Origin: Candidatus Roizmanbacteria bacterium RIFCSPHIGHO2_02_FULL_40_13b | GTDB taxonomy: Bacteria > Patescibacteriota > Microgenomatia > UBA1406 > HO2-37-13b | Assembly (NCBI GenBank): GCA_001789445.1 | Contig: MFZQ01000013.1 | Coordinates: 4,596 to 68,595 of the forward strand | Length of the DNA stretch: 64,000 nucleotides | Reading direction: 5' to 3' | In this document: positions 1 through 62,188 of the stretch, in pieces | Layout: each line of letters starts with the position of its first letter | How positions within the stretch are numbered: position 1 is the stretch's first letter | Translations under genes and position numbers: made by a program | Notes under the pieces: generated by a model | The model's database searches: none | What the model saw: only the letters and a program-made list of their open reading frames with translations | What the model was told of the DNA's origin: nothing

Positions 1-75
1 TTCATACACGGATTCCAAACAGCGGGCGATTGCTTTTTCTTCGTTAAAAATTGCAAGTGCGACTGAAAGCTTCAT
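1..75 (-). CDS. glycosyltransferase family 2, N-terminal fragment (gene continues past the left edge)
   Basis: Reverse translation from ATG at 75..73 gives MKLSVALAIFNEEKAIARCLESVYE, a typical GT2 N-terminus. ATGA overlap with the fmt stop. Confidence 0.45.
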   Translation of the reverse strand, partial: MKLSVALAIFNEEKAIARCLESVYE

Positions 76-938
76 ACATTTATTATACTTGGATTGAATG
101 GAATTTCATTCTTTCCTTCAAATTGAACCTTTTTTATTACTAGTTTTCCATCCGCAAAAGCACAATCGGTAATTTTCATGCGCTTATCATCAACAAGGGT
201 CCAGATTCCTGGCCAGGGGTAAAGGGCTCTAAACTTGTTATAAATTTCGCGTCCATCCTCTATTATGCCATCTTCAATTTTCTGAAATTCGACAAATCCA
301 TCATCTTTTTTGAGTAATTTTGTATAGGTAGCTTGTGAGTGATCCTGGATTCCCGCTCCCTGAAGGGGACCTTCGGCCTTCGCGAGAATGACATTGAGGA
401 TCTCTTTCTTAAACAACTCAAACCCAACATTCGTCAACTCTGTTTCAAGTTCTGGTCGTCTCATATCTGGCCCAATCGCATACTCAACCTGGGAAATAAT
501 GGGTCCGTGATCCATTTTTTCATCCATTTTCATGAGCGTGACTCCGGTCACTTTGTCTCCATTAAGTAAGGGATAGGTGGTGGGGGAAGGTCCTCGATAT
601 TTGGGGAGCAAGGAAGGGTGGATGTTCCAGAATCCATATTTTGGAATTTGCAGAATATCTGCGGGAATTATCTTGCCAAATGCGTAAACTAAAGCTAGAT
701 CAATATTGTTAAATTGTTGATTTGTTAAATTGTTACCATTCATGTAATTGATAGGAATCGAAAACTTTTCGGCCAAAAGTTTCACCGCCGAAGGCGTGAG
801 AACTTGCTTTCTCCCTACTGGCTGATCGGGCCGAGTAATGACGAGTGCGACTTCAATCTCTTTCAGTTCAGGGTCGGTGAGAATTTTTTCCAGAAAGTCT
901 GCGGAAAATTGTGGAGTTCCAAAATATGCAATTTTCAT
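72..938 (-). CDS. fmt: methionyl-tRNA formyltransferase
   Basis: MKIAYFGTPQFS N-terminus and the HPSLLPKYRGPSP formyltransferase motif. Length 288 aa. Confidence 0.9.
   Translation of the reverse strand: MKIAYFGTPQFSADFLEKILTDPELKEIEVALVITRPDQPVGRKQVLTPSAVKLLAEKFSIPINYMNGNNLTNQQFNNIDLALVYAFGKIIPADILQIPKYGFWNIHPSLLPKYRGPSPTTYPLLNGDKVTGVTLMKMDEKMDHGPIISQVEYAIGPDMRRPELETELTNVGFELFKKEILNVILAKAEGPLQGAGIQDHSQATYTKLLKKDDGFVEFQKIEDGIIEDGREIYNKFRALYPWPGIWTLVDDKRMKITDCAFADGKLVIKKVQFEGKNEIPFNPSIINV
347..393. repeat. family-A hairpin element (nested-loop variant) lying in frame inside fmt
   Basis: ggattcccgctccctgaaggggaccttcggccttcgcgagaatgaca closely matches the reverse complement of the intergenic copy at 13308-13350. 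It is translated as VILAKAEGPLQGAGI in Fmt. Confidence 0.7.
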
Positions 939-1033: not shown

Positions 1034-2143
1034 CTATCTCGTTATCTGGTACGATTTTACTTTCTCAAGTAGTTCTTTGGCTCTTGGATCTGTTTCAAAA
1101 TGCTTTCGGACGGGCTCGATAAGTTTGTCGATGAGGGCGGCAACGGTGTTTTTGAGGTCTTGTGGATGGATTTCTTTGGCGACATATTTCTCCTCTAGAT
1201 CCTGAAACGAGTTCAGGATGACAGGGCCACCAAATTTTTCTGGCCGCTCAATCGTTATTTTATCCATTCCAAGCTGGTCGAGAGATTCGAAAATAATATA
1301 TTTGCAATATTCGAGAATTGGATTTTCCTCAACAACTCCTTCAGGGCAATATGCACGAGCAATTTTTCGGGAAATTTCTTCTGTTGTATCCGTCATAAAA
1401 ATCGCTGAATCAGGGTTTGATTTTGACATTTTCATACGTTCTGTTCTTTCATATGCTTCAGAAGGTGCAGGGCTGGGGCTGGGTGATGGCGATGATTGTG
1501 TCAATCCCAACAACATATGATGAGATACAACAATTGGCTTATCAAAGCCCAATTGCGGGCCGATTTCTCGAGCGAGCATATTGACTTTTCGCTGATCCAT
1601 TCCAAGTTGCGTAACCCGCGCTTTCAAATAAAAAACGTCTGCCGCTTGCATGGCAACATACATGAGCTGGGCGAGTGTCAAATCCATCGATTCGGCCCGT
1701 CCCATAATCTCGGCGGCCCGCACAAACCGTTTAATCGCGTTTGTTTTGGCGATTTTCATGACAAGTTCCCAGTATTTCGGATCCTTCACAACTTCGCTTG
1801 CCCATACAAACTCGACATGATCCAACTTCATTCCAGACGCTTTCCAAACTTCGATTAAGTATTTTCCGACCGTTTGAATTTTTTCCATATCTCCGCCCAT
1901 TTTATTGTTCAAATACGCATGCCAGTCGGCAACAAGCATCTTGAAATGAGCACCTGAAGCAATCATTTTGTTCACATTTATTGTACGAAGGATTCCCGTT
2001 GCTATATGCACTTGTCCCGAAGGTTCAAACCCGTCATATGCAACAAACAGCTCATTTTTTGAAATGAGACTTTCCAATTCTTCAACCTGAATTATTTCTT
2101 CTCCAACAGTCTTGAGTAAACTTAATTTTTCTTGCAAAGACAT
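1034..2143 (-). CDS. tyrS: tyrosyl-tRNA synthetase, archaeal/eukaryal-type
   Basis: Class I aaRS with AYDGFEPSGQVHIATG (HIGH-like region) and KMSKS. A Ser/Pro low-complexity insert (SSPSPSPSPAPSE) lies just before KMSKS. A separate trpS exists at 32585. Confidence 0.8.
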   Translation of the reverse strand: MSLQEKLSLLKTVGEEIIQVEELESLISKNELFVAYDGFEPSGQVHIATGILRTINVNKMIASGAHFKMLVADWHAYLNNKMGGDMEKIQTVGKYLIEVWKASGMKLDHVEFVWASEVVKDPKYWELVMKIAKTNAIKRFVRAAEIMGRAESMDLTLAQLMYVAMQAADVFYLKARVTQLGMDQRKVNMLAREIGPQLGFDKPIVVSHHMLLGLTQSSPSPSPSPAPSEAYERTERMKMSKSNPDSAIFMTDTTEEISRKIARAYCPEGVVEENPILEYCKYIIFESLDQLGMDKITIERPEKFGGPVILNSFQDLEEKYVAKEIHPQDLKNTVAALIDKLIEPVRKHFETDPRAKELLEKVKSYQITR

Positions 2144-11677: not shown

Positions 11678-11798
11678 CAGGTTTGAGATTCTATCGTCCC
11701 GCTCTGCGGGACTCGAAACAGGTATCTACGCTCCTTCTCCCATACTCCCAAACCTTCTCTCCCGACCTCCCATACCCCCAAACTCCCATACTTAACTC

Positions 11799-11838: not shown

Positions 11839-13179
11839 ATGGATCCTTTTAAAAATGCACTCTCATTCCTAGACGATATAAGCTCATATCTTTCACCCGC
11901 CGATAAGCCCTATTTAGCCCGTCTTAAAAATCCAAACCATGTTCATAAGGATATACTCCAGGTGAGTATGGACGATGGCTCAAAGAAGGATTTTCCTGCC
12001 TTTCGTTCCCAACATAATAATGCACTTGGGCCGTACAAGGGCGGAATCCGCTTCCACCCCGGCGTGACAGAAGCCGAAATAAAAGCACTTTCATTGTGGA
12101 TGAGTTTAAAATGCTCCATTGCGGGCTTACCATATGGGGGTAGTAAAGGGGGGGTAATCGTTGACCCAAAAAAGCTATCAAAATCGGAGCTAGAATCGCT
12201 TTCTCGGGCGTATGCTCGCTTTCTGGCCCCACACATCGGGGAGCATGTGGATGTGCCAGCTCCGGACGTAAACACAAATCCCCAGATAATGGCATACTTG
12301 CTTGATGAATATGAAAAAGTGATCGGACACCACGCTCCAGGCGCCTTTACAGGTAAACCCTTGATACTTGGGGGGAGTATGGGAAGGGATAAAGCAACTG
12401 GATATGGAGGAGTGCTTGCCCTCAAATTCCTGATAGAAAAACTAAAATCAAAACATTCGGGCGGGTCACAGACCGCGCCCCTACATAAAGCTCCATCCTC
12501 TGATACTCCTACGTGGTATATGAAGCCTATTTCTCAAATAACCGTCGCCGTTCAGGGATTCGGGAATGTCGGCTACTTTTTTGCAAAGATTGCTTCAGAA
12601 CAGGGGTTTCGAGTCGTTGCGGTCTCTGATTCCAAAGGAGCTACATACCTGGAAACCGGCCTAGATCCAGTGGCGACAATGGAATGTAAGCGTCAGAAGG
12701 GGAGTTTGGCAGGGTGTTATTGTAAAGGAGGCGTGTGTGACCTCAAGGGAGGGACTATGATGTCAAATGAGGATCTTCTACAATTACCAGTAGACATACT
12801 TGTTCCAAGCGCACTTGAAAACGTCATCACCAAAGATAATACCTCCAAAATCAAAGCCTCTGTAATCGTTGAAATGGCAAATGGACCGATTACTTCAGAA
12901 GCCGATCATCTCCTTACTTCAAAGAATGTGTTGATAATACCTGACATTTACGCAAACTCCGGGGGAGTATCAGTATCCTATTTTGAATGGGTACAAAACC
13001 TGATGGGGTATTATTGGACGGAAGAAGAAGTGGACGAGAAACTCGAAGCGCTTATGAAAACGTCGTTTAATAAAATGTTTAAAAGAAGTGAAGAGGGTAC
13101 AATCTCTTTACGAAAGGCGGCGTATTTAGTTGCGGTTGAGCGAATTATTGAAGCAGAACGAATGAGGCGACCCTTATAA
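11839..13179 (+). CDS. gdhA: glutamate dehydrogenase
   Basis: KGGIRFHP, GGSKGG and QGFGNVG motifs. An extra segment (SKHSGGSQTAPLHKAPSSDTPTWYMKP) precedes the Rossmann glycine motif. Confidence 0.9.
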   Translation: MDPFKNALSFLDDISSYLSPADKPYLARLKNPNHVHKDILQVSMDDGSKKDFPAFRSQHNNALGPYKGGIRFHPGVTEAEIKALSLWMSLKCSIAGLPYGGSKGGVIVDPKKLSKSELESLSRAYARFLAPHIGEHVDVPAPDVNTNPQIMAYLLDEYEKVIGHHAPGAFTGKPLILGGSMGRDKATGYGGVLALKFLIEKLKSKHSGGSQTAPLHKAPSSDTPTWYMKPISQITVAVQGFGNVGYFFAKIASEQGFRVVAVSDSKGATYLETGLDPVATMECKRQKGSLAGCYCKGGVCDLKGGTMMSNEDLLQLPVDILVPSALENVITKDNTSKIKASVIVEMANGPITSEADHLLTSKNVLIIPDIYANSGGVSVSYFEWVQNLMGYYWTEEEVDEKLEALMKTSFNKMFKRSEEGTISLRKAAYLVAVERIIEAERMRRPL

Positions 13180-13307: not shown

Positions 13308-13404
13308 TGTCATTCCCGCGGAGGCCGAAGGTCCCCTTCAGGGGGCGGGAATCTATGGATCCCCTGCCTGCCGGCAGGCAAGGCCGATCAGGTCGGGGAT
13401 GACA
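13308..13404. repeat. family-A element with nested inserts in both hairpin loops
   Basis: The tcccgc..gcggga loop carries gccgaaggtccccttcagggg. The ccccga..tcgggg hairpin carries cctgcctgccggcaggcaagg. Confidence 0.8.
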
Positions 13405-13444
13405 CTAGTAACAATTTAACAATTTAACAATTTAACCAAACCAT

Positions 13445-17218: not shown

Positions 17219-17302
17219 CAACTAACCCCGCACCGCACCCAGACCGAGGCGTAAGCCGAGGTCACCACATCGGTCTCAAAGCCGGGAAGGACGAGTAGTT
17301 CA

Positions 17303-17524
17303 ATGGAGATTACACTCGAAGAATTGGTTGAGGCGATCTGTAGTCGTCGAATCAAGTCTTTCGACAGCATCGAAGCAGGTCCGTTCGAAGACTTGAATCC
17401 AGAGATGGTAGAGACCTTCAGACTGATGCTGAAGGAAAAGGGTTACACTCTCTGGCAGGGTAACGAAGAACACGCCCCAAAGATCGTGATGATCGCAAGG
17501 ACAGGTTATCGGAGAGGCTTGTAG
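17303..17524 (+). CDS. hypothetical small protein in a GC-rich islet
   Basis: 73-aa ORF with plausible composition, followed by a 10-bp-stem hairpin at 17551-17594. Confidence 0.3.
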   Translation: MEITLEELVEAICSRRIKSFDSIEAGPFEDLNPEMVETFRLMLKEKGYTLWQGNEEHAPKIVMIARTGYRRGL

Positions 17525-17725
17525 TTGGAACGGAGATGGGCGCGCATGTGGCCGCCAGAAGAGGACAGGCTTTGCCTGACACCGTTCTGGCGGCCCAAGC
17601 GCCTCTAACCCCAAACTCCCACACTCCCAAACTACTTCTTTTCCACTTTTCTCCTCCTTGCACACACTTAAAAATAAAATAGAGATTCTATCACCCCGCC
17701 ATGCGGGGTTCCAGAATGACAGTAT

Positions 17726-17807
17726 TGTCATTCCCGCGGAGGCGGGAATCTAATTGAATGGATCCCCTGCCTGCCGGCAGGCAAGGCCGATCAGGTCGGG
17801 GATGACA
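17726..17807. repeat. family-A element with nested palindrome
   Basis: tgtcattcccgcggaggcgggaatc..ggatcc[cctgcctgccggcaggcaagg]ccgatcaggtcggggatgaca. Confidence 0.8.
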
Positions 17808-21869: not shown

Positions 21870-22616
21870 ATGCCAATAAAAGATAGAAGAGTAAAAATAT
21901 TGTTACTGCTTCTCCTAATACCCTCTATTCAATACGATTTCATTGAAATTGACGAAGCAAATCAGAACATATTTGATTTATCTATCAATCAAAAGACAAA
22001 GGGAACTCTTTCAGCTCTACTAAAGGATGGTTCTATTGAAAAAGAAGATCGAAATGGTAGCGTTTTTTATAGAATTACTCAAAAAGGTATTCAAGGACTT
22101 TCTCTAGAATTTCCTTTTTTTAGATTTCTTAGTGAGGAGTGGGATGGATTATGGAGGATTATTTCATATGAAATTCCCGAATCAAAACGAGAAATTCGGG
22201 ATCGGTTAAGACGAGAGATGCGTGGATGGGGACTGGGGCCATGGCATAGGTCATTCTGGATAACCCCACACCCAATAAGTAGCTCCCTAAAGGATCTAGT
22301 TTACGGAAAAGAAGAAGAAAAATACATTCAGTCATTTGAAGCTACACACATGTTTGGAGATATGGATATTCTAGTAGAGAAGGTCTGGGAAAAGTCGCAG
22401 CTTGAGAAGGAATATCGAGCTATGTTCAAGACTTGGCATGAAACACTTTCAACGGACGTTTCAAAAGAAGATAAAATGAAGCAGATTCTATACATATACA
22501 TAGCGACACTTCGCATGGACCCGGGATTACCAAAAAGCTTAGTCGGTAGAAACTTTATTGGGTTTGAGGCATTTGATATATTCAAAGAGGTAAAAGGGAT
22601 TCTTCTAAAAGCCTAA
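21870..22616 (+). CDS. PaaX-like transcriptional regulator
   Basis: WDGLWRIISYEIPESKREIRDRLRREMRGWGLGPWHRSFWITPHP resembles the PaaX C-terminal region. Confidence 0.5.
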   Translation: MPIKDRRVKILLLLLLIPSIQYDFIEIDEANQNIFDLSINQKTKGTLSALLKDGSIEKEDRNGSVFYRITQKGIQGLSLEFPFFRFLSEEWDGLWRIISYEIPESKREIRDRLRREMRGWGLGPWHRSFWITPHPISSSLKDLVYGKEEEKYIQSFEATHMFGDMDILVEKVWEKSQLEKEYRAMFKTWHETLSTDVSKEDKMKQILYIYIATLRMDPGLPKSLVGRNFIGFEAFDIFKEVKGILLKA

Positions 22617-25798: not shown

Positions 25799-26455
25799 TT
25801 AATTGTCACAACTGGCAGTTAATTCCAATTTGCCGGAATAACTTCCTCCCAATCCGGCAGTTTTATTAACTTTTATTTCAAGAATTCCTTCTACTGGTCC
25901 ATTTCCACTTCCGGAAAGTATTTTTCGAGGCAAAACTTTCGAAAAAGGTCTAAAAGTATTCTCATTGATGAAATCTGCCGGAGCATACGTACTTTCAACA
26001 TGAACGCCCCAGCCGTAGGAGTTCGGATTTGTCCATTTTTGAGCTACAAGACTTGTGCACTGTTTTGATTCGTCACATTTTGTTTCTGGCAGAATAGTAT
26101 TTCCCAAAACTAGTTTTAGGCTTGATTTTTCCATAACCTCCAGAAGGGCAGATCCATTGAGGCCACTCTTAACCCCAACGCTTATTTTTTGAACTTCTAC
26201 ACCAGAATTTGATCCAAACACAAGTGTATCTGGTTTCTGGAGATAGCTACAACTTGAACCTTTTTCATGCTCAACATATGCATTTCCAGTCAAAACTAAA
26301 CTAGCCTGTGCTTTTCCAATACGTTTTTCTAGAAGTGAACTATTTTGTGAATTAAGCGCTGAATCAATCGAGATTGCAGGTGAAATAATTTGAAACTCGG
26401 AAGCCTGTACATGAACCATGTACCATGTACCATGTAACACCAGAAAGGCTATCAT
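25799..26455 (-). CDS. hypothetical secreted protein
   Basis: From M23 of the track ORF the N-terminus is a signal-like MIAFLVLHGTWYMVHVQA. The upstream 22 codons are repeat-motif DNA, so the start is uncertain. Confidence 0.4.
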   Translation of the reverse strand: MIAFLVLHGTWYMVHVQASEFQIISPAISIDSALNSQNSSLLEKRIGKAQASLVLTGNAYVEHEKGSSCSYLQKPDTLVFGSNSGVEVQKISVGVKSGLNGSALLEVMEKSSLKLVLGNTILPETKCDESKQCTSLVAQKWTNPNSYGWGVHVESTYAPADFINENTFRPFSKVLPRKILSGSGNGPVEGILEIKVNKTAGLGGSYSGKLELTASCDN

Positions 26456-27764: not shown

Positions 27765-27840
27765 CACGAAACACAAACCATGTAACACAAAACATTTATG
27801 TGTGTTACATGTTACATGATTCGTGTTACATGAAATTATT

Positions 27841-38951: not shown

Positions 38952-39121
38952 GTCATGCTGAATTTACTCGCCTCGGCGAAGCCAAGCGAAGTCGGGTTTC
39001 AGTCTGCCTGCCGGCAGGCAGGCGTTCAGAATGACACTGTTGTCATTCCCGCGCAGGCCGAAGGTCCTCGTAAGGGGACGGGAATCTATTCTTATGGATC
39101 CCCGTCTTCACGGGGATGACA
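38952..39121. repeat. two adjacent palindromic elements (gtcatgctgaa variant with nested palindrome, and a family-A nested-loop variant)
   Basis: ctgcctgccggcaggcag at 39004-39021, and tgtcattcccgcgcaggccgaaggtcctcgtaaggggacgggaatc...cggggatgaca. Confidence 0.75.
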
Positions 39122-46189: not shown

Positions 46190-46313
46190 TTGTTATTTTT
46201 CTAAAAGTTACAGTGTTAATGATGAATATGACTTTGAATTAGTATAGAGTCTGTTAATAATGACTGTCAAGGACTTTCGTATTTTTGTTATATTTAATCG
46301 GAATTTGATATAT

Positions 46314-46514
46314 TTAATCCGAATTTGATATATTCAATTTTTCTACCTTTTCTATATCGAGATTATATTGTGTATAAAAATCCGTATGTTTGTTATCTGT
46401 ACAAAAACATTCACCCAATGGATTTCTTGCTCTCCAACAACCTATAGAATTGCATTTAGTCTGTGTTTCAGACATTTTTCCACAGCCACCAATACAAACG
46501 AAATGAGGTTTCAT
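46314..46514 (-). CDS. small Cys-rich protein (putative metal-binding ribbon)
   Basis: FVCIGGCGKMSETQTKCNSIGCWRARNPLGECFC: seven Cys in 30 residues. Confidence 0.45.
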   Translation of the reverse strand: MKPHFVCIGGCGKMSETQTKCNSIGCWRARNPLGECFCTDNKHTDFYTQYNLDIEKVEKLNISNSD

Positions 46515-54783: not shown

Positions 54784-56832
54784 ATGAATCGTAAATATAC
54801 TCCTAAAGATATAGAACCTAAAATCGCACAATCCTGGGACGATGAAAATATCTATAAGTCAATTCCCCCTATCTCCCAAACCCCTCCTCCCCCAAACCCT
54901 AAAAAGGCATATATCTTAGTCATGTTTCCATATCCTTCAGGCGAGGGTCTGCATACGGGGCATGCGCGAGTTTATACGGGAACAGATGTCCTTGCTCGTT
55001 TTTTTCGTATGAAAGGAAAATCAGTACTTCACCCAATGGGATTTGACGCTTTTGGTCTTCCTGCCGAAAATGCCGCAATTAAGCTCCAAAAAAATCCAAT
55101 AGATATGGTTCCTGAAAATATTGCAAATTTTAAGCGACAAATGAAGCTCCTGGGCTTATCGTATGATTGGAGTAGGGAATTTTCCACAACAGATCCGGAA
55201 TATTACAAATGGACACAGTGGCTTTTCATTCAATTTTTCAAAATGGGGCTTCTTCATAAGAAAGAAACACCAATATTCTATTGCCCAAACTGTAAAACAG
55301 GACTTGCGCAGGAAGAAGTCTTGGAAGATGGGACGCATGAACGATGTGGGACAGCTGTTGAAGAGCGCAACTTGCCGCAGTGGATTTTTCGAATCACTAA
55401 GTATGCTGACAGACTTCTCGATGATCTTGAAGGTCTTGATTGGCCAGCCGGGATATTACAAATGCAGAAAAATTGGATAGGGAAGAAAGTGGGGAAATCT
55501 GGGGAGTCAACATATCATTTGCGAGATTGGATTTTTTCACGACAACGATATTGGGGGGAACCGATACCGATGATTTTTTGTGATAAATGCGCTGAAAAAA
55601 AAATCAACTACTGGGAAGGGGATAGGAGTAGAGGAGTAGATCATAACAATAATGAAGTGGAACAAATGATATCAGGATTTGTGGATGAAGTGAAGGATGA
55701 TTTATATGGATGGTTTCCGGTTGAAGAGAAGGATTTGCCCTTAAAACTTCCCTATGTGAAAAGTTATATGCCAACGGAAAGTGGGCAGTCGCCCTTGTCG
55801 CAAATTGAAGAGTTCGTACATACAACGTGTCCACATTGTGGTTCAGATGCTCGAAGAGAAACAGATACAATGCCCAACTGGGCAGGAAGTAATTGGTATT
55901 TCTTGTATTTTGGCCGTCAGCATGACAAAACTCGCCCACCGTCTTTACAAAATTGGAAAACAGAGATCGGGGATCCATCTGCCCAGTGGCTTCCAGTGGA
56001 TTGGTATCTGGGTGGGGCAGAGCACGCGGTGCTTCATCTTCTGTACGCACGATTTTGGGTCAAAGCGATGAAAGATATAGGACTTGTTTCTTTCAGTGAG
56101 CCCTTTGCCAAGCTTCGAAGTGTGGGAATGGTCCTTGCGTCCGATAATCGAAAAATGAGCAAGTCGCTTGGAAATGTAGTAAATCCGGATGATGTGGTTT
56201 CCGAATATGGAGCCGATACATTACGGGTGTATGAGATGTTTATGGCGCCATTTGGCCAAGAAGTTGCCTGGTCAGAAAGTGCAATCCAGGGTGCCTACCG
56301 ATTTTTGCAAAGAATTTGGCAGATATTCATAAGCTCTGATAGTATAACAGAAAATCAGGATGAGGAAAACTTTGAACTAGTTGCCGAGCTTCAAAGTACC
56401 ATTTCAAGGATCGAGTCAGATATCACGAACGTGAAATTTAATACATCTATTTCAACAATGATGGAATTCATCAATTTGTGGGAAAAAAAGAAGTTATCCC
56501 GTCAGAGTAGTGCAAAGTTCCTACAAATACTTGCCCCATTTGCTCCATTTATGACCGATTATTTATGGAGAGAAATCTTAAAAAATAAAGAATCAATTCA
56601 TATTTCTACATGGCCGAGTGTTGATAAATCGGTAATTTCTATCAAAAAAGTTACCATAACGATTCAAGTTAATGGCAAAATGAGGGGGGTAATTTCGTTC
56701 GAAAATGGGGACGTGGAGGAAAAAGAGGCCATTGAAGAAGCCCTAAAGCTAGAAAATGTGAAAAAATATGTCGTCGATGATACTTATAAAGTAATCTACG
56801 TCAAAGAGAGAGTATTGAACTTTGTAGTTTAA
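54784..56832 (+). CDS. leuS: leucyl-tRNA synthetase lacking the CP1 editing domain
   Basis: PYPSGEGLHTGH (HIGH), KMSKS, NWIGKKVGKSGESTYHLRDWIFSRQRYWGEPIP. 682 aa. Start moved to the ATG at 54784. Confidence 0.85.
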   Translation: MNRKYTPKDIEPKIAQSWDDENIYKSIPPISQTPPPPNPKKAYILVMFPYPSGEGLHTGHARVYTGTDVLARFFRMKGKSVLHPMGFDAFGLPAENAAIKLQKNPIDMVPENIANFKRQMKLLGLSYDWSREFSTTDPEYYKWTQWLFIQFFKMGLLHKKETPIFYCPNCKTGLAQEEVLEDGTHERCGTAVEERNLPQWIFRITKYADRLLDDLEGLDWPAGILQMQKNWIGKKVGKSGESTYHLRDWIFSRQRYWGEPIPMIFCDKCAEKKINYWEGDRSRGVDHNNNEVEQMISGFVDEVKDDLYGWFPVEEKDLPLKLPYVKSYMPTESGQSPLSQIEEFVHTTCPHCGSDARRETDTMPNWAGSNWYFLYFGRQHDKTRPPSLQNWKTEIGDPSAQWLPVDWYLGGAEHAVLHLLYARFWVKAMKDIGLVSFSEPFAKLRSVGMVLASDNRKMSKSLGNVVNPDDVVSEYGADTLRVYEMFMAPFGQEVAWSESAIQGAYRFLQRIWQIFISSDSITENQDEENFELVAELQSTISRIESDITNVKFNTSISTMMEFINLWEKKKLSRQSSAKFLQILAPFAPFMTDYLWREILKNKESIHISTWPSVDKSVISIKKVTITIQVNGKMRGVISFENGDVEEKEAIEEALKLENVKKYVVDDTYKVIYVKERVLNFVV

Positions 56833-56839
56833 TACTATT

Positions 56840-56956
56840 TCGCTTGATACCCATTTCTCGCACAAGTGGGGACCCCCGCTTTAAACTGGCACCCCAGTTG
56901 TTCTCGAAACGGGTATCTACGCGAAATATCTGTCATCCTGAACTTGTTTCAGGATC
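56840..56956 (+). repeat. family-B element directly after the leuS stop, plus a single-hairpin variant
   Basis: tcgcttgatacccatttctcgcacaagtggggacccccgctttaaactggcaccccagttgttctcgaaacgggtatctacgc, then tgtcatcctgaacttgtttcaggatc. Confidence 0.8.
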
Positions 56957-58255: not shown

Positions 58256-58305
58256 AAACTCATCCTTTTCTTGCAATACCATCTTTCTTCTGCTAGGCTG
58301 AAAGT

Positions 58306-59913
58306 ATGAAAGCAGACGATGTCATCCTGGAAGAGCGTAGCGACGATAGGATCCCATTGTCATTCCCGCGAAGGCGGGAATCTATTCAAATGGATCCCCG
58401 ATCGGGGTCGGGGATGACAAATCTTCGGTCCAGAATGACAAATTCCGTCATCCCGAACATTAATTCTGTCATCCTGAACGGAGTGAAGGATCTCGGTGTG
58501 ATAGTATCTTTATTTTTCCTTTTTGTCTCTCCAGTGAGTGCCTCCACAACTACTTCAAGAATCACCATCCCACTCTCCACAAACTCCACGCTCGTGATTT
58601 CTAACACAGACTCCACAGTAGATAAGAAGATCATCATCTCCGATCATCTCTCCTCAACTCGAGTAATTCTTAACGAAGATGGAACAGAATCATCGTCACT
58701 CTCATACTATCCATATGGAGAACAATTTAACAATTTAACCCCGCTTCGCCCGAGGCTTCGCGAGGGCGCAGCAATTTATCAATTTAACAATAGACTCTAC
58801 ACCGGCCAACGTAAAGTTCCCGGTGACAATCTCTACAACTACAACGCCCGCTTCTATAATCCTACCCTCGGAGTTTTCACCCAACCAGATACAGTGGAGG
58901 GACCAAACAGGTTTGCGTATGTGGGAGGAAATCCGATCATGGCAAATGATCCTAGTGGACATTGTATACCCTGTATTATTGGAATTGGTGCATTAGTTGG
59001 AGCGATGGTATCTTCGCCTATGTCATCAACTGAAGCTGATACTCCGGGAGAAATTGCACGAGTTCAAGAGTGGGAAGCAAGTGGCGGACCAGAATTTAAT
59101 TATCTTATGGGAAGAATGATCCCGGGTGTTGGACAGGGAATGGGTCTTGCAGAACTGGCTAGAGGAGAAGATATTTTGGGTAGAGATGTTAGTCGTGGAC
59201 GTAAAATAATGAATGTTGCGGATATCGCACTTATGGGCGCAACATCAGCAAACAGTTTATTGGGTGCACGAAATACAGCAATACAAAGCGCGCGAGTTGC
59301 CCAGTATGAAGGCGGAGCAGAACTATTGGCGGCTAGAAGTGTGGAGGAAGCACAAGAAGTGTTGAGTGGACAAAGTCCTCTTTCCTATAGTAAAATACCC
59401 TTTAGAGAATCTCTAAGGACAGGAAGTTTAGGAACGTACAATAGCTATAATCAAGAAATTTCTTTAGCAAGCACTGATGTGTTAAACAGCTTAAAACATG
59501 AAGGAGTACATGCACTTCAAGATATAAATGGTCATCCTGGATCTGAATTCGCTACAATATGGGGACCAAAAACGATTGTAGGTGAAGCAAAAGATGTACT
59601 ATTAGGAAGGACTGATTCGTCTTGGCTAAAATCAATGGCACGAGAGGATTATAAAAGTCTTTGGAATGACTATGATTCAGAATTAATGGCATACGCTTCA
59701 GCAAATAAAGGTTCGATTAGTGCACAGATTGGTGGAGCTATGGGTTCAACATCATCGCGTTTGCTATTTAACCAAGGAAACGCAGTAAAAGCGTCAGGGA
59801 TGGGAGTATCTATAGGAATTACAGCTGTTCAGCCATTAGGATATTTTGCACAATTACAAGCACAAGTAATGGCTTCCATTAATGGTGGTTACGAAAGAAT
59901 AAAATTTAAATAA
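58306..59913 (+). CDS. RHS-core polymorphic toxin, C-terminal domain type 2 (HExxH-containing)
   Basis: Same promoter/ATG block and the same ~140-aa RHS-core region as 28674-30038, up to GGNPIMANDPSGH. A different 316-aa tail contains LKHEGVHALQD. Confidence 0.7.
   Translation: MKADDVILEERSDDRIPLSFPRRRESIQMDPRSGSGMTNLRSRMTNSVIPNINSVILNGVKDLGVIVSLFFLFVSPVSASTTTSRITIPLSTNSTLVISNTDSTVDKKIIISDHLSSTRVILNEDGTESSSLSYYPYGEQFNNLTPLRPRLREGAAIYQFNNRLYTGQRKVPGDNLYNYNARFYNPTLGVFTQPDTVEGPNRFAYVGGNPIMANDPSGHCIPCIIGIGALVGAMVSSPMSSTEADTPGEIARVQEWEASGGPEFNYLMGRMIPGVGQGMGLAELARGEDILGRDVSRGRKIMNVADIALMGATSANSLLGARNTAIQSARVAQYEGGAELLAARSVEEAQEVLSGQSPLSYSKIPFRESLRTGSLGTYNSYNQEISLASTDVLNSLKHEGVHALQDINGHPGSEFATIWGPKTIVGEAKDVLLGRTDSSWLKSMAREDYKSLWNDYDSELMAYASANKGSISAQIGGAMGSTSSRLLFNQGNAVKASGMGVSIGITAVQPLGYFAQLQAQVMASINGGYERIKFK
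58321..58492. repeat. cluster of family-A and related hairpin elements inside the 5' coding region of the second RHS gene
   Basis: gtcatcctggaag..ggatc, tgtcattcccgcgaaggcgggaatc..gtcggggatgaca, ..cagaatgaca, cgtcatcccgaac.., tgtcatcctgaacgg..ggatc. Translated as ..LSFPRRRESIQMDPRSGSGMT... Confidence 0.75.
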
Positions 59914-60081: not shown

Positions 60082-60981
60082 ATGTTAGTACTACTTCTTG
60101 CTATTTTAGGTCTCTGTATTGGATCTTTTTTAAATGTTTGTATTGATAGATTGGGGAATGAGGAGGAGAGGAGAAGATGGGGGGATGGGGAGAGCGAGAG
60201 GTGGGGAGGAAAAGAGGAGGGGATAGGGAGACTGGGAGGACGGTCGCATTGTGATTATTGCCATAAACAACTCCACTGGAACGATTTGATTCCGGTAGTT
60301 TCGTATATTCTTTTAGGAGGAAGATGTAGGTATTGCCATAAAAAGCTTTCACTCCAATATCCTTTCATTGAAATCCTCACGTCTGTATCATTTGTACTTG
60401 TATATCTCTTTTCCCCCCATCTTCTCCTCTTATCCTCCCCACCTCTCGCTCTCCCCATCCCCCCATCTTCTCCTCTCCTCCTCATAAGCATCTTAGGAAT
60501 AATCTCCTCCTCCATCGTCATCTTCTTTTCCGACCTCAAATACCACATCATTCCCGATGAAGCAACAGTCGTACTTATCCTTTCATCTTTGTTATTCCAT
60601 CTCTCCACCTCTCAATCTCTCGATCTCCATCTCTCCACCTCTCCACTACTCCACATTCTCCTTTCCAGTATCACCGCAGCAATCTCCCTCTCTCTCACCC
60701 TCTATTTCATCTTTTATGTCACAAAAGGACGGGGAATGGGATTTGGGGATGTTAAACTTGCCGTTGCCATCGGCTTGCTTTTGGGCCTAAAAAGTGGTTT
60801 TTTTGCGCTATATTTGGCATTTGTGGCTGGAGGAGTGGTGAGCTTACTCCTCATCCTTATGAAAAGGAAGAAATTGCGAAGCAAATTAGCATTCGGACCG
60901 TTCCTTATCTTCGGAACCCTCGTCATGTTCTTCGCAAACAAGCCAATTATTGCGTTTTTTGATAGGTTGTTTGGGATGTAG
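60082..60981 (+). CDS. pilD: prepilin peptidase (A24 family)
   Basis: CIGSFLNVCIDRL, CDYC...CRYC zinc motif, IIPDE and GFGDVKL active-site aspartates. Start placed at the ATG at 60082. Confidence 0.8.
   Translation: MLVLLLAILGLCIGSFLNVCIDRLGNEEERRRWGDGESERWGGKEEGIGRLGGRSHCDYCHKQLHWNDLIPVVSYILLGGRCRYCHKKLSLQYPFIEILTSVSFVLVYLFSPHLLLLSSPPLALPIPPSSPLLLISILGIISSSIVIFFSDLKYHIIPDEATVVLILSSLLFHLSTSQSLDLHLSTSPLLHILLSSITAAISLSLTLYFIFYVTKGRGMGFGDVKLAVAIGLLLGLKSGFFALYLAFVAGGVVSLLLILMKRKKLRSKLAFGPFLIFGTLVMFFANKPIIAFFDRLFGM
60158..60210. repeat. left arm of a perfect 53-bp inverted repeat inside pilD (purine-rich family C)
   Basis: atgaggaggagaggagaagatggggggatggggagagcgagaggtggggagga. Confidence 0.9.
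60433..60485. repeat. right arm of the perfect 53-bp inverted repeat inside pilD
   Basis: Exact reverse complement of 60158-60210, checked base by base. Confidence 0.9.
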
Positions 60982-61042: not shown

Positions 61043-61122
61043 TGTGGCGAAGTGGGTGGTCCGAAGCGGAGGCCTCCCAGCGATTCGCAAAACGGGTATC
61101 TTCGCTAAAAATATGTGATTGA

Positions 61123-61829: not shown

Positions 61830-61834
61830 AAATC

Positions 61835-61917
61835 TCGCTTGATACCCATTTCTCGAACAAGTGGGGACCCCCGCTTGAAACTGGCACCCCAGTTGTTCTT
61901 AAAACGGGTATCTACGC
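61835..61917 (+). repeat. family-B element directly after the ndk stop
   Basis: Near-identical to 56840-56925. Confidence 0.8.
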
Positions 61918-61924
61918 TCGTTTC

Positions 61925-62188
61925 TTATACCCTAATAACATCAATTCCCAAAAACACATCCACCACATTCTTGAATACCTGCAAAATGCCCATGTCGATG
62001 GTAAATTCTTTTTCCCCCCCACCTATTTCATGAACGGTAATGGTTTTATTTACAATACAAATGAACTGGGAATGGAATCCAAGTATATCAAAATTTCCAC
62101 GCTCGTTATAAGATGACACTGATTCAGCAGAACCTTCATAAATCACTTTGTCCGCGTCATGGATAGTTACTGTTAGTGTTTTGTCCAT
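61925..62188 (-). CDS. atpC: F1 ATP synthase epsilon subunit, beta-sandwich domain only
   Basis: LTVTIHDADKVIYEGSAESVSSYNERGNFDILGFH pattern. 87 aa with no C-terminal helical hairpin. Confidence 0.7.
   Translation of the reverse strand: MDKTLTVTIHDADKVIYEGSAESVSSYNERGNFDILGFHSQFICIVNKTITVHEIGGGEKEFTIDMGILQVFKNVVDVFLGIDVIRV

Follow-up and report, generated by a model that had tools for sequence, protein, structure and literature searches.

The stretch analysed here, referred to as the window, comprises 64,000 nucleotides (G+C content about 40%) of contig MFZQ01000013.1 from the assembly GCA_001789445.1 of Candidatus Roizmanbacteria bacterium RIFCSPHIGHO2_02_FULL_40_13b. Near its beginning lies fmt, the gene of methionyl-tRNA formyltransferase, whose reading frame harbours a 47-nt hairpin repeat with a close counterpart in an intergenic region of the same window. 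A second hairpin unit resides in the reading frame of the tyrosyl-tRNA synthetase gene tyrS. The following features are central to both cases:

72 to 938, minus strand: fmt, the intact host gene (288 amino acids), with the Pfam domains Formyl_trans_N and Formyl_trans_C
347 to 393, minus strand: TGTC-tagged hairpin unit of the dRS3/NTS type with enlarged loop, in frame in fmt as V183-I197
396 to 404, minus strand: GAGATCCTC, putative 5'-end remnant of an older unit of opposite orientation, immediately preceding the resident unit when read along the gene
968 to 1029: head-to-head dimer in the spacer separating fmt from tyrS
1198 to 1223, minus strand: perfect hairpin unit inside tyrS (open reading frame 1034-2143, minus strand), encoding PVILNSFQDL
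2511 to 2572: intergenic head-to-head dimer with a three-way fold (z = -5.5), repeat family D2
13308 to 13404, plus strand: intergenic head-to-head dimer (repeat families D19 and D20), of whose units the first (13308-13353) resembles the fmt element most closely
39041 to 39121, plus strand: intergenic dimer with a more distant long-loop copy, repeat family D20, sharing 90% identity with the 13308 copy
56931 to 56956, plus strand: counterpart of the tyrS unit in intergenic sequence

fmt is encoded on the minus strand, on which the unit reads TGTCATTCTCGCGAAGGCCGAAGGTCCCCTTCAGGGAGCGGGAATC and begins with TGTCATTCTCGC. Its exact 47-nt string is unique in the window; read on this strand, it shows three substitutions in 46 nt compared to the intergenic unit at 13308-13353. 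A preceding inspection of the letters alone (the sequence-only reading) had claimed this match and had likened the element to the copy at 39041 as well, which turns out to be a more distant relative with more than five mismatches. It had further described the element as being read through in the inter-domain linker of Fmt, and indeed the translation VILAKAEGPLQGAGI proved correct upon checking. The encoded protein matches solved Fmt structures down to E = 1e-40 and, in a protein alignment, possesses the residues which are invariant across 30 orthologs. In the AlphaFold2 model (mean pLDDT 89) a helix extends from residue 161 to 186, followed by coil from 187 to 203, and the stretch of lowest confidence comprises residues 181-210 (pLDDT 68-74). 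According to this model, the unit-coded residues V183-I197 are predicted to form the final turn of the last helix of the N-domain together with the inter-domain linker. Predicted peptides from K177-Q198 include, for example, EILNVILAK and AEGPLQGAGIQDHSQATYTK. As to the fold of the unit, the outer 8-bp stem is retained and a nested hairpin is present in the enlarged loop, amounting to -7.8 kcal/mol compared to -11.1 kcal/mol for the twin at 13308. A MITE would have terminal inverted repeats and a target-site duplication and would derive from an insertion sequence; the dimers do have inverted ends, but at the fmt junctions, TTTAAG on one side and CAAGATCAT on the other, no target duplication is evident, and no parent insertion sequence is seen. 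That fmt might be a pseudogene or an assembly artefact was considered and rejected, as the same protein is found in an independent ENA assembly (P0001); independent assemblies of relatives, which behave alike, likewise counter an artefact.

The element belongs to an abundant family. A scan of the window for the tag GTCATYC reveals approximately 30 units built as TGTCAT-YC(stem)-loop-(stem)GR-ATC, most of which are arranged as head-to-head pairs. Nine units conform to the exact dRS3 pattern ATTCCC-N8-GGGAAT (0.01 expected), the 28-nt NTS consensus of Neisseria is matched nine times at no more than three mismatches (within two to three; 0 expected), and the published SRM ("Ssn-related motif") pattern yields nine matches compared to 0.22 in shuffled sequence. 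Since this published strict pattern misses most units with a GGAGG loop or an enlarged loop as well as nearly all degenerate intragenic copies in relatives, we wrote a looser stem-based detector of our own (stem of at least 7 bp, calibrated on shuffles), by which 21 well-formed units are found in the 64 kb as against approximately 0.6 per 100 kb in shuffles. Each of these 21 starts with YGTC-AT/AY. A unit consists of a 5' tag YGTC, a stem of 8-9 bp beginning with AT, a loop which is either short or enlarged, and a 3' tail; the units in fmt, at 13308 and at 39041, which keep the stem around a loop of approximately 25 nt, represent a variant of the published consensus. At least nine dimers or clusters occupy intergenic spacers of the window, the ends of the dimers being inverted (TGTCAT...ATGACA). 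Inspection of the sequence itself shows that a dRS3-type unit is open in five of six frames. By these sequence features, tag, stem and dimer layout fitting the published superfamily, the window repeats are assigned to the previously described CGTC/TGTC-tagged REPs (dRS3/NTS/SRM class), among which some Rickettsia palindromic elements (RPEs) are counted. Two candidates were discarded: a unit at 22250 in a PaaX-like open reading frame, where the Pfam domain continues through the site without gap, and a unit-like match in the gdhA gene of one relative (L082), which we judged to be due to chance.

The closest relatives of the window's Fmt, prepilin peptidase and further proteins derive from metagenome bins of the Microgenomates/Roizmanbacteria type within the candidate phyla radiation (CPR), Fmt sharing about 61% identity. 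Eight of these relatives (L081 to L088) have fmt loci syntenic with the window, comprising tyrS, rho, gdhA, a LysM-M23 gene and a TPR gene. Repeat-type peptides occur at the same Fmt position in the alignment of 30 orthologs, and comparison of the DNA of the eight close orthologs shows this linker site to be occupied, in either orientation, by six further tagged units and by one hairpin lacking the tag. Delimited as the segment between TTTAAG and CAAGATCA, the cassettes of these orthologs are:

L081 and L085, plus orientation: TGTCATTCTGACCCAGAGCGAAGCGGCGGGGAAGAATC
L083, plus orientation: TGTCATTCCGAACGTAGTCGAGGAATC
L087, plus orientation: TGTCATTCCGAGCGTTAGCGAGGAATC
L082, unit in minus orientation: read as GATCCTTCGACTCCCTTCGGTCTCTCAGGATGACA
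L086, unit in minus orientation: read as GATTCTTCGCTCCGCTCAGAATGACA
L088, unit in minus orientation: read as GATCCTGAAACAAGTTCAGGATGACA
L084: strong hairpin without tag

Tagged units in fmt stand five times in plus and three times in minus orientation, in addition to the untagged hairpin of L084. The nine cassettes measure 60, 60, 48, 39, 48, 60, 39, 39 and 45 nt, all of which are multiples of three and free of stops, and several of the unit families represented in the orthologs are also present between genes of the same loci. As element-free controls we used distant Fmt sequences of at most 47% identity among the matches listed in a scan of a genome collection: 80 such genes possess a canonical 19-residue segment, LLIKTLPKYISGEIKPxxQ, with no tag and with fold z-scores around 0. 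Compared to these 19 residues, the fmt linker is 17-24 residues long. More distant Microgenomates exhibit other unit-coded linkers (VILNLFQDP, VILNSFQDL, VIPSVVEGS, DSGQARMT), a common 17-residue Microgenomates allele (KKTVFIKDSLQLKPQNH) displays no trace of a unit, and in the Fmt of P0020 and P0037 the linker amounts to 33 residues as compared to this 17-residue allele. Judged from these sequences, the fmt linker is a repeatedly occupied site whose total length is held within bounds.

Exchange at this site is visible between close relatives. Although L085 and L086 share 94% identity over fmt, their cassettes differ and stand in opposite orientations; L081 and L085, which overall are about 80% identical, reach 98-100% over some 120 nt around the cassette they share. 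These mosaic identities indicate that recombination carries cassettes between lineages. Just upstream of the window's resident unit, GAGATCCTC matches the start GAGATYCTTCG of the minus-oriented units in L082 and L086 within the same codons (K-x-E-I-L) and is, on the basis of this resemblance, possibly the stub of an older unit in reverse orientation. In several orthologs, moreover, the final codons of fmt including the stop derive from a hairpin unit (TTG TCA TCC TGA; 10866-10891 in L085, 2231-2256 in L086), so that the repeat also shapes the C-terminus.

The unit in tyrS constitutes a further case which the sequence-only reading did not contain. It differs by one mismatch from the intergenic unit at 56931-56956 and folds clearly better than shuffles (z = -4.2). 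Its peptide PVILNSFQDL aligns without gap with a native segment in seven orthologs (e.g. PVTLSTYQEL, PVILNSYAEL) and, equally without gap, with GGNKTFKSYEEL in the solved TyrRS structure 8zmi. The tyrS of L086 already possesses the first 14 nt of the unit as a half-site, GTCATCCTGAACTC. Since distant orthologs share the residues of this site, it is to be regarded, as far as the alignment tells, as a native segment overwritten by the unit at unchanged length and not as an insertion. The sequence-only reading had named shared residues in distant orthologs as well as disrupted host reading frames as arguments against itself. The former is found for tyrS; it is not found for fmt, where distant orthologs have an unrelated 19-residue segment without hairpin. 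Disruption is observed in neither gene, both being intact. Within the region corresponding to 1198-1260 of tyrS, L081-L087 fall into two haplotypes, VSFxSYxALE and PVxLxxYxELEE, and L085 and L086 differ in haplotype despite 94% identity in fmt, a pattern suggestive of mosaic recombination. At another position (1459-1500) the window's TyrRS has an insertion of 18 residues rich in Ser and Pro ahead of KMSKS when compared to solved TyrRS, and the TyrRS of L084 (8838-10004) has a different insertion of 24 residues at the same spot.

Units also occur in other genes of the relatives. The glycosyltransferase genes beside fmt contain zero to two of them in variable loops: in one of these genes (GT1) a unit is read as SVIPNLFRDP; in the other (GT2) an insertion of seven residues is present (GSRTKSGMT) along with a loop containing zero, one or two units. 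For GT2 empty-site alleles exist, against which the insertions comprise up to 26 residues. A scan of environmental contigs for the dRS3-type head-to-head dimer provided 111 loci totalling 848 kb. There, 39 of 89 dimers (about 44%) are located at least 30 codons inside open reading frames of at least 200 residues; of random 60-nt windows placed in the same loci, 60% lie equally deep in long reading frames. In all seven dimer-bearing reading frames tested, Pfam domains flank or span the dimer, which is often situated at a domain junction, and all seven specify housekeeping proteins (ValRS, MurT, MiaA, a GT4/GT1 glycosyltransferase, RadA, PurK and DnaX). In the LeuRS encoded on L183 the dimer is found just upstream of the conserved VFTTRPD segment, and LeuRS, RadA and MurT have about 20 extra residues. 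The reading phase is GTC/ATY/CCN in 24 of 31 non-redundant cases (p = 6e-7). An assignment of the environmental contigs to the lineage of the window was dropped, as tblastn found no close relatives and their G+C content extends from 31 to 60%.

Within the window, several further genes contain repeats in or near their reading frames:

12457 to 12495, plus strand: 39-nt in-frame insertion with hairpin (z = -3.3) in gdhA, absent from three orthologs
31614 to 31642, minus strand: unit in the 5' leader of glyA, "in frame" solely through a spurious extension of the open reading frame
54867 to 54898, plus strand: pyrimidine-rich period-8 array near the N-terminus of leuS, read as PPISQTPPPPNP, family D12
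58320 to 58495, plus strand: six-unit cluster, two units of which are truncated, between the conserved ATG at 58306 and the membrane-spanning/signal segment of the RHS-2 reading frame
60154 to 60246, plus strand: purine-rich period-8 array (TRF period 8) in frame in pilD, a 21-residue insertion (ERRRWGDGESERWGGKEEGIG) absent from 17 orthologs, family D4
60412 to 60483, plus strand: inverted, pyrimidine-rich copy of the pilD array, in frame in a length-variable part, families D6 and D14
60588 to 60655, plus strand: third, pyrimidine-rich period-8 array of pilD, in a length-variable part, family D6

The sequence-only reading had listed three clear cases of palindromic elements within genes, namely fmt, RHS-2 and pilD, of which solely fmt is clear. 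The cluster claimed for RHS-2 does consist of six real units; their translation, however, depends on the start codon. The RHS-1 paralog has the same upstream block and the same ATG as RHS-2, and from this ATG the conserved AAGRATCT is reached after 69 nt in RHS-1 and after 180 nt in RHS-2, each distance being divisible by three. Starting at ATG 58306, the N-terminus of RHS-2 would read MKADDVILEER; a GTG preceded by a Shine-Dalgarno-like AAGGA just downstream of the cluster would place the start near LGVIVSLFF and yield a normal signal peptide. Six close homologs (P0241-P0246) possess in-frame N-terminal tails of differing unit content, and none of them starts at the membrane segment, which favours translation of the cluster. 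Depending on the start codon used, we therefore rate its translation, to the extent that reading frames can tell, as probable. The internal RHS segment ccgcttcgcccgaggcttcgcgagggcg is, as proposed, an in-frame extra segment, since it is missing from the homologs P0244 and P0245; its supposed hairpin folds no better than shuffles (z = 0.09). Similarly, the extra segment proposed for gdhA is a genuine in-frame insertion with a hairpin, although it is single-copy, no second copy being found in the window at three mismatches or fewer. The repeat in pilD is read in frame as claimed but is not palindromic: the pilD arrays are in-frame repeats of another class, distinct from the hairpin units. For leuS, the window's LeuRS is seven residues longer at its array than the LeuRS on L183. 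The true start of glyA (MKDIQITNL...) lies downstream of the unit, the false extension lying in the region 31527-31664.

A number of side observations concern the same genes and repeats. Both RHS paralogs share a promoter-like block (28625-28676 and 58257-58308; TTGCAA ... TAGGCT ... ATG) which ends at the ATG, and their transcripts are possibly leaderless; in the C-terminal toxin domains the two RHS-type toxins differ. Hairpin units, being open in most frames, inflate open reading frames, and the one at 17300-17731 (region 17300-17749) looks spurious. Period-8 arrays of the types ATTGTTAA, CCCAAACT and, purine-rich, GGGGAGAN are present at 705-735, 11769-11791, 13409-13436, 17610-17633, 29035-29054, 54867-54898, 58721-58791, 60160-60220, 60420-60483 and 60596-60654; the intergenic ones adjoin clusters of hairpin units, the others fall within fmt, leuS, pilD and both RHS genes, where they are read in frame. 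A module containing AAACGGGTATCTACGC (11696-11731, 31658-31707, 56837-56936, 61071-61119 and 61832-61931) adjoins hairpin units upstream of plus-strand genes (gdhA, an M16 peptidase gene, ndk) and could be a promoter or regulatory site. Finally, an intergenic tandem repeat of 20 nt in 2.8 copies (TTTGATATATTTAATCCGAA) and arrays of the heptamer TGTTACA/TGTACCA are found at 46284-46338, 26406-26436 and 27803-27832.

Like RPEs, the units stand in frame within functional genes of a reduced genome, at structurally tolerant places and, as far as the environmental contigs are concerned, with a large intragenic share. The classic RPE-1, measuring 100-150 bp, belongs to another sequence class. CGTC-tagged REPs, as described by Di Nocera, De Gregorio and Rocco (2013, PMC3733652), comprise the families CGTC-1 to CGTC-4, whose tag is often TGTC, whose stem of 8-9 bp starts with AT, whose loop measures 4-5 nt and among which head-to-head dimers predominate. 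The window repeats agree with them in tag, stem, loop of 4-5 nt, head-to-head dimers, short tail and the presence of several families per genome, and equally in having copies within genes, those of a tRNA synthetase and of DNA repair included; intragenic copies were reported there from several species and phyla, and there as here N-terminal cases are flagged as possibly untranslated (PMC3733652). The host is different, being a Microgenomates-like member of the CPR, a group which, according to the parts of that survey available to us, was not sampled in 2013 (PMC3733652). Different, too, are some of the loops, which here comprise 25 nt or more, and the repeated exchange of one unit for another at a single orthologous position in a coding sequence, of which we found no description for this family in the sources at hand. 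As CGTC-1 is equated in that paper with dRS3 of Neisseria and RPE-6 of R. conorii, and CGTC-4 with RPE-4, the units share a superfamily with these RPEs (PMC3733652), a placement adopted from the paper. The sequence-only reading had suspected RPE-like behaviour in the sense of a parallel. The behaviour is borne out by the in-frame units in intact fmt and tyrS; the shared superfamily would imply kinship to RPEs, not only analogy. For RPE-bearing proteins translation is experimentally supported, as cited in PMC3733652, and here it is deduced from the reading frame.

In Neisseria, NTS/SRM repeats have been defined and tied to the GIY-YIG single-strand nuclease SsnA, and the NTS motif has an influence on transformation and is a marker of variable genes (Chenal et al. 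2025, PMC11893778). Nine of the window units match the dRS3/NTS pattern and resemble these repeats in clustering and in carrying an orientation tag; the head-to-head dimer layout of the window repeats likewise agrees with the account given there (PMC11893778). In the portions of that paper we had access to, repeats around genes are treated and intragenic copies and CPR are not discussed (PMC11893778), and, unlike in Neisseria, no ssnA is found in the window. Five single-domain GIY-YIG-like reading frames are, however, present on environmental contigs (all four that were scanned were confirmed by Pfam, and an NCBIfam scan assigned no usable family name). Two of these genes, L127 5817-6222 and L133 7309-7714, have tagged hairpins on both sides (type TGTCATTGCGAG...GCAATC), and two others, L094 7600-8095 and L181 7496-7853, have one just downstream, that of L181 being of the CGTCACCCTGAAC... 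type. This arrangement, seen on the environmental contigs only, resembles the published NTS-ssnA-NTS layout (PMC11893778). With the GTAG REP/BIME elements of E. coli and Pseudomonas, which are associated with RAYT, the units share short hairpins, dimers and clusters, occasional intragenic copies and the recognition of hairpins in single-stranded DNA as suspected route of spread; their tag is TGTC/CGTC instead of GTAG, and no gene of the IS200/IS605 type (RAYT) was detected among the reading frames scanned or in the neighbouring gene tables of relatives. Our literature search revealed no relevant report on CPR or Patescibacteria with these repeats. Both this class of element and its residence within genes are already known from other phyla (PMC3733652); new are the lineage of the host, the repeated turnover of units at a single coding site, the overwriting in tyrS and the phase bias on environmental contigs.

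We consider it highly probable that the fmt element is a genuine TGTC/CGTC-tagged hairpin repeat which resides in frame where the protein tolerates it and is translated as ordinary protein. This reading draws on the identity to intergenic copies, the in-frame residence in intact genes, the repeated occupation of one site, the biased reading phase and the mosaic alleles. Units occupy the spacers between genes in the form of head-to-head dimers and clusters, and copies in coding sequence would survive only where the protein tolerates 9-20 arbitrary residues, i.e. in inter-domain linkers, surface loops or N-terminal tails, and where a stop-free phase is available, mostly GTC/ATY/CCN read as V-I-P/L. 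In fmt the cassette would turn over at bounded linker length while homologous recombination reassorts its alleles; for tyrS, the native segment would have had a likeness to one half of the unit before being overwritten by it. Spread would presumably proceed by hairpin-directed mobilisation on single-stranded DNA or by templated repair, possibly driven by a GIY-YIG nuclease of the Ssn type (single-domain, cd10448) encoded elsewhere in the genome. Several observations weigh against this reading. Only two of the 21 well-formed window units are unambiguously within genes, and translation is deduced from conservation of the reading frame. The fold of the fmt copy is no better than that of shuffles (z = -0.87), so this copy may be decaying. 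The phase bias is partly forced by stops in the other frames of CCTGA-type units, and the contigs which display it are of mixed or unassigned taxonomy and range from 31 to 60% in G+C. Neither the window nor L081-L088 contain a GIY-YIG/ssnA gene (six-frame motif search, Pfam of small reading frames by clusters). For fmt, no target-site duplication and no empty/filled pair with exact junctions was recovered; either transposition-like insertion or templated conversion may account for the unit.

As to the mode of entry, "insertion" is too simple a term, since the fmt linker has approximately its ancestral length and the tyrS unit replaces a native segment without gap. Possible, though somewhat unlikely, is that units enter genes mainly by short-patch gene conversion or template switching from existing copies over microhomology, which conserves length and requires no transposition into genes; this would be a variant of the mechanism just described, not an exclusive alternative to it. 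In tyrS, the gap-free alignment, the half-site of L086 and the identical length of solved TyrRS fit such overwriting, as do, in fmt, linkers of 17-24 residues compared to 19 ancestrally, the swap between L085 and L086 with clean flanks (TTTAAG and CAAGATCAT) and the putative stub of an earlier unit next to the resident one. Yet net insertions exist: seven residues in GT2 and up to 26 against its empty-site alleles, linkers of 33 residues in P0020 and P0037, and about 20 extra residues in LeuRS, RadA and MurT. Nor can simple conversion yield the orientation flips at the fmt site. That intragenic units go further and serve as portable cassette-exchange points, at which local breaks, made during replication or DNA uptake by a hairpin-specific single-strand nuclease or by the hairpin itself, are repaired from other copies or incoming alleles, appears unlikely to us. 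More doubtful still is a hairpin kept at the domain boundary of Fmt for its function, with the likeness to intergenic copies reflecting recruitment instead of neutral colonisation; such a hairpin might act as mRNA pause for stepwise domain folding, as binding or nicking site of a hairpin protein or as recombination signal. All nine close orthologs have some hairpin at exactly this site, the untagged one of L084 included, recombination breakpoints cluster at the cassette, and the Neisseria motif provides a precedent by its effect on transformation and its association with variable genes (PMC11893778). A gene-specific function is, however, at odds with the 80 distant Fmt genes among the matches listed, whose canonical segment lacks a tag and has z-scores centred on zero, with the common Microgenomates allele KKTVFIKDSLQLKPQNH devoid of any sign of a unit and with the weakened stem of the window copy; and the occurrence of units in linkers and loops of many unrelated proteins fits tolerance better. 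Finally, the in-frame copies could owe their status to annotation, reading frames simply running through units which are open in most frames and in reality belong to leaders, spacers or dead genes. This holds true for the spurious 5' extension of glyA and probably for short reading frames such as 17300-17731, and the downstream GTG with AAGGA in RHS-2 as well as the five open frames of a dRS3-type unit are compatible with it. But the units of fmt and tyrS lie between conserved domains of intact full-length proteins, all six close RHS homologs keep the in-frame upstream ATG despite varied units, and independent assemblies agree; we regard this explanation as very improbable.

Tagged hairpin units in and beside reading frames have practical consequences. 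Gene callers extend reading frames through units, as in glyA and possibly RHS-2, and start codons beside units need care. Peptides such as VIPAKAGIQ, SFPRRRES, DSRLRGND and ILKQVQDD in otherwise conserved proteins are markers of repeat-derived segments and should be masked in alignments and phylogenies. The fmt linker, in turn, offers a natural allele series for studying unit turnover and any role of an Ssn-type nuclease. In-frame colonisation by repeats, best known from Rickettsia, is hereby extended to bacteria of the candidate phyla radiation, whose genomes, to our knowledge, postdate the 2013 survey of CGTC and GTAG repeats. Intragenic residence may be common, given that about 44% of the copies on dimer-carrying environmental contigs are found in long reading frames. 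If intragenic units did act as cassette-exchange points, linkers and loops of CPR housekeeping proteins would be continually rewritten and a sizeable share of them would be repeat-derived, which would go beyond passive tolerance.

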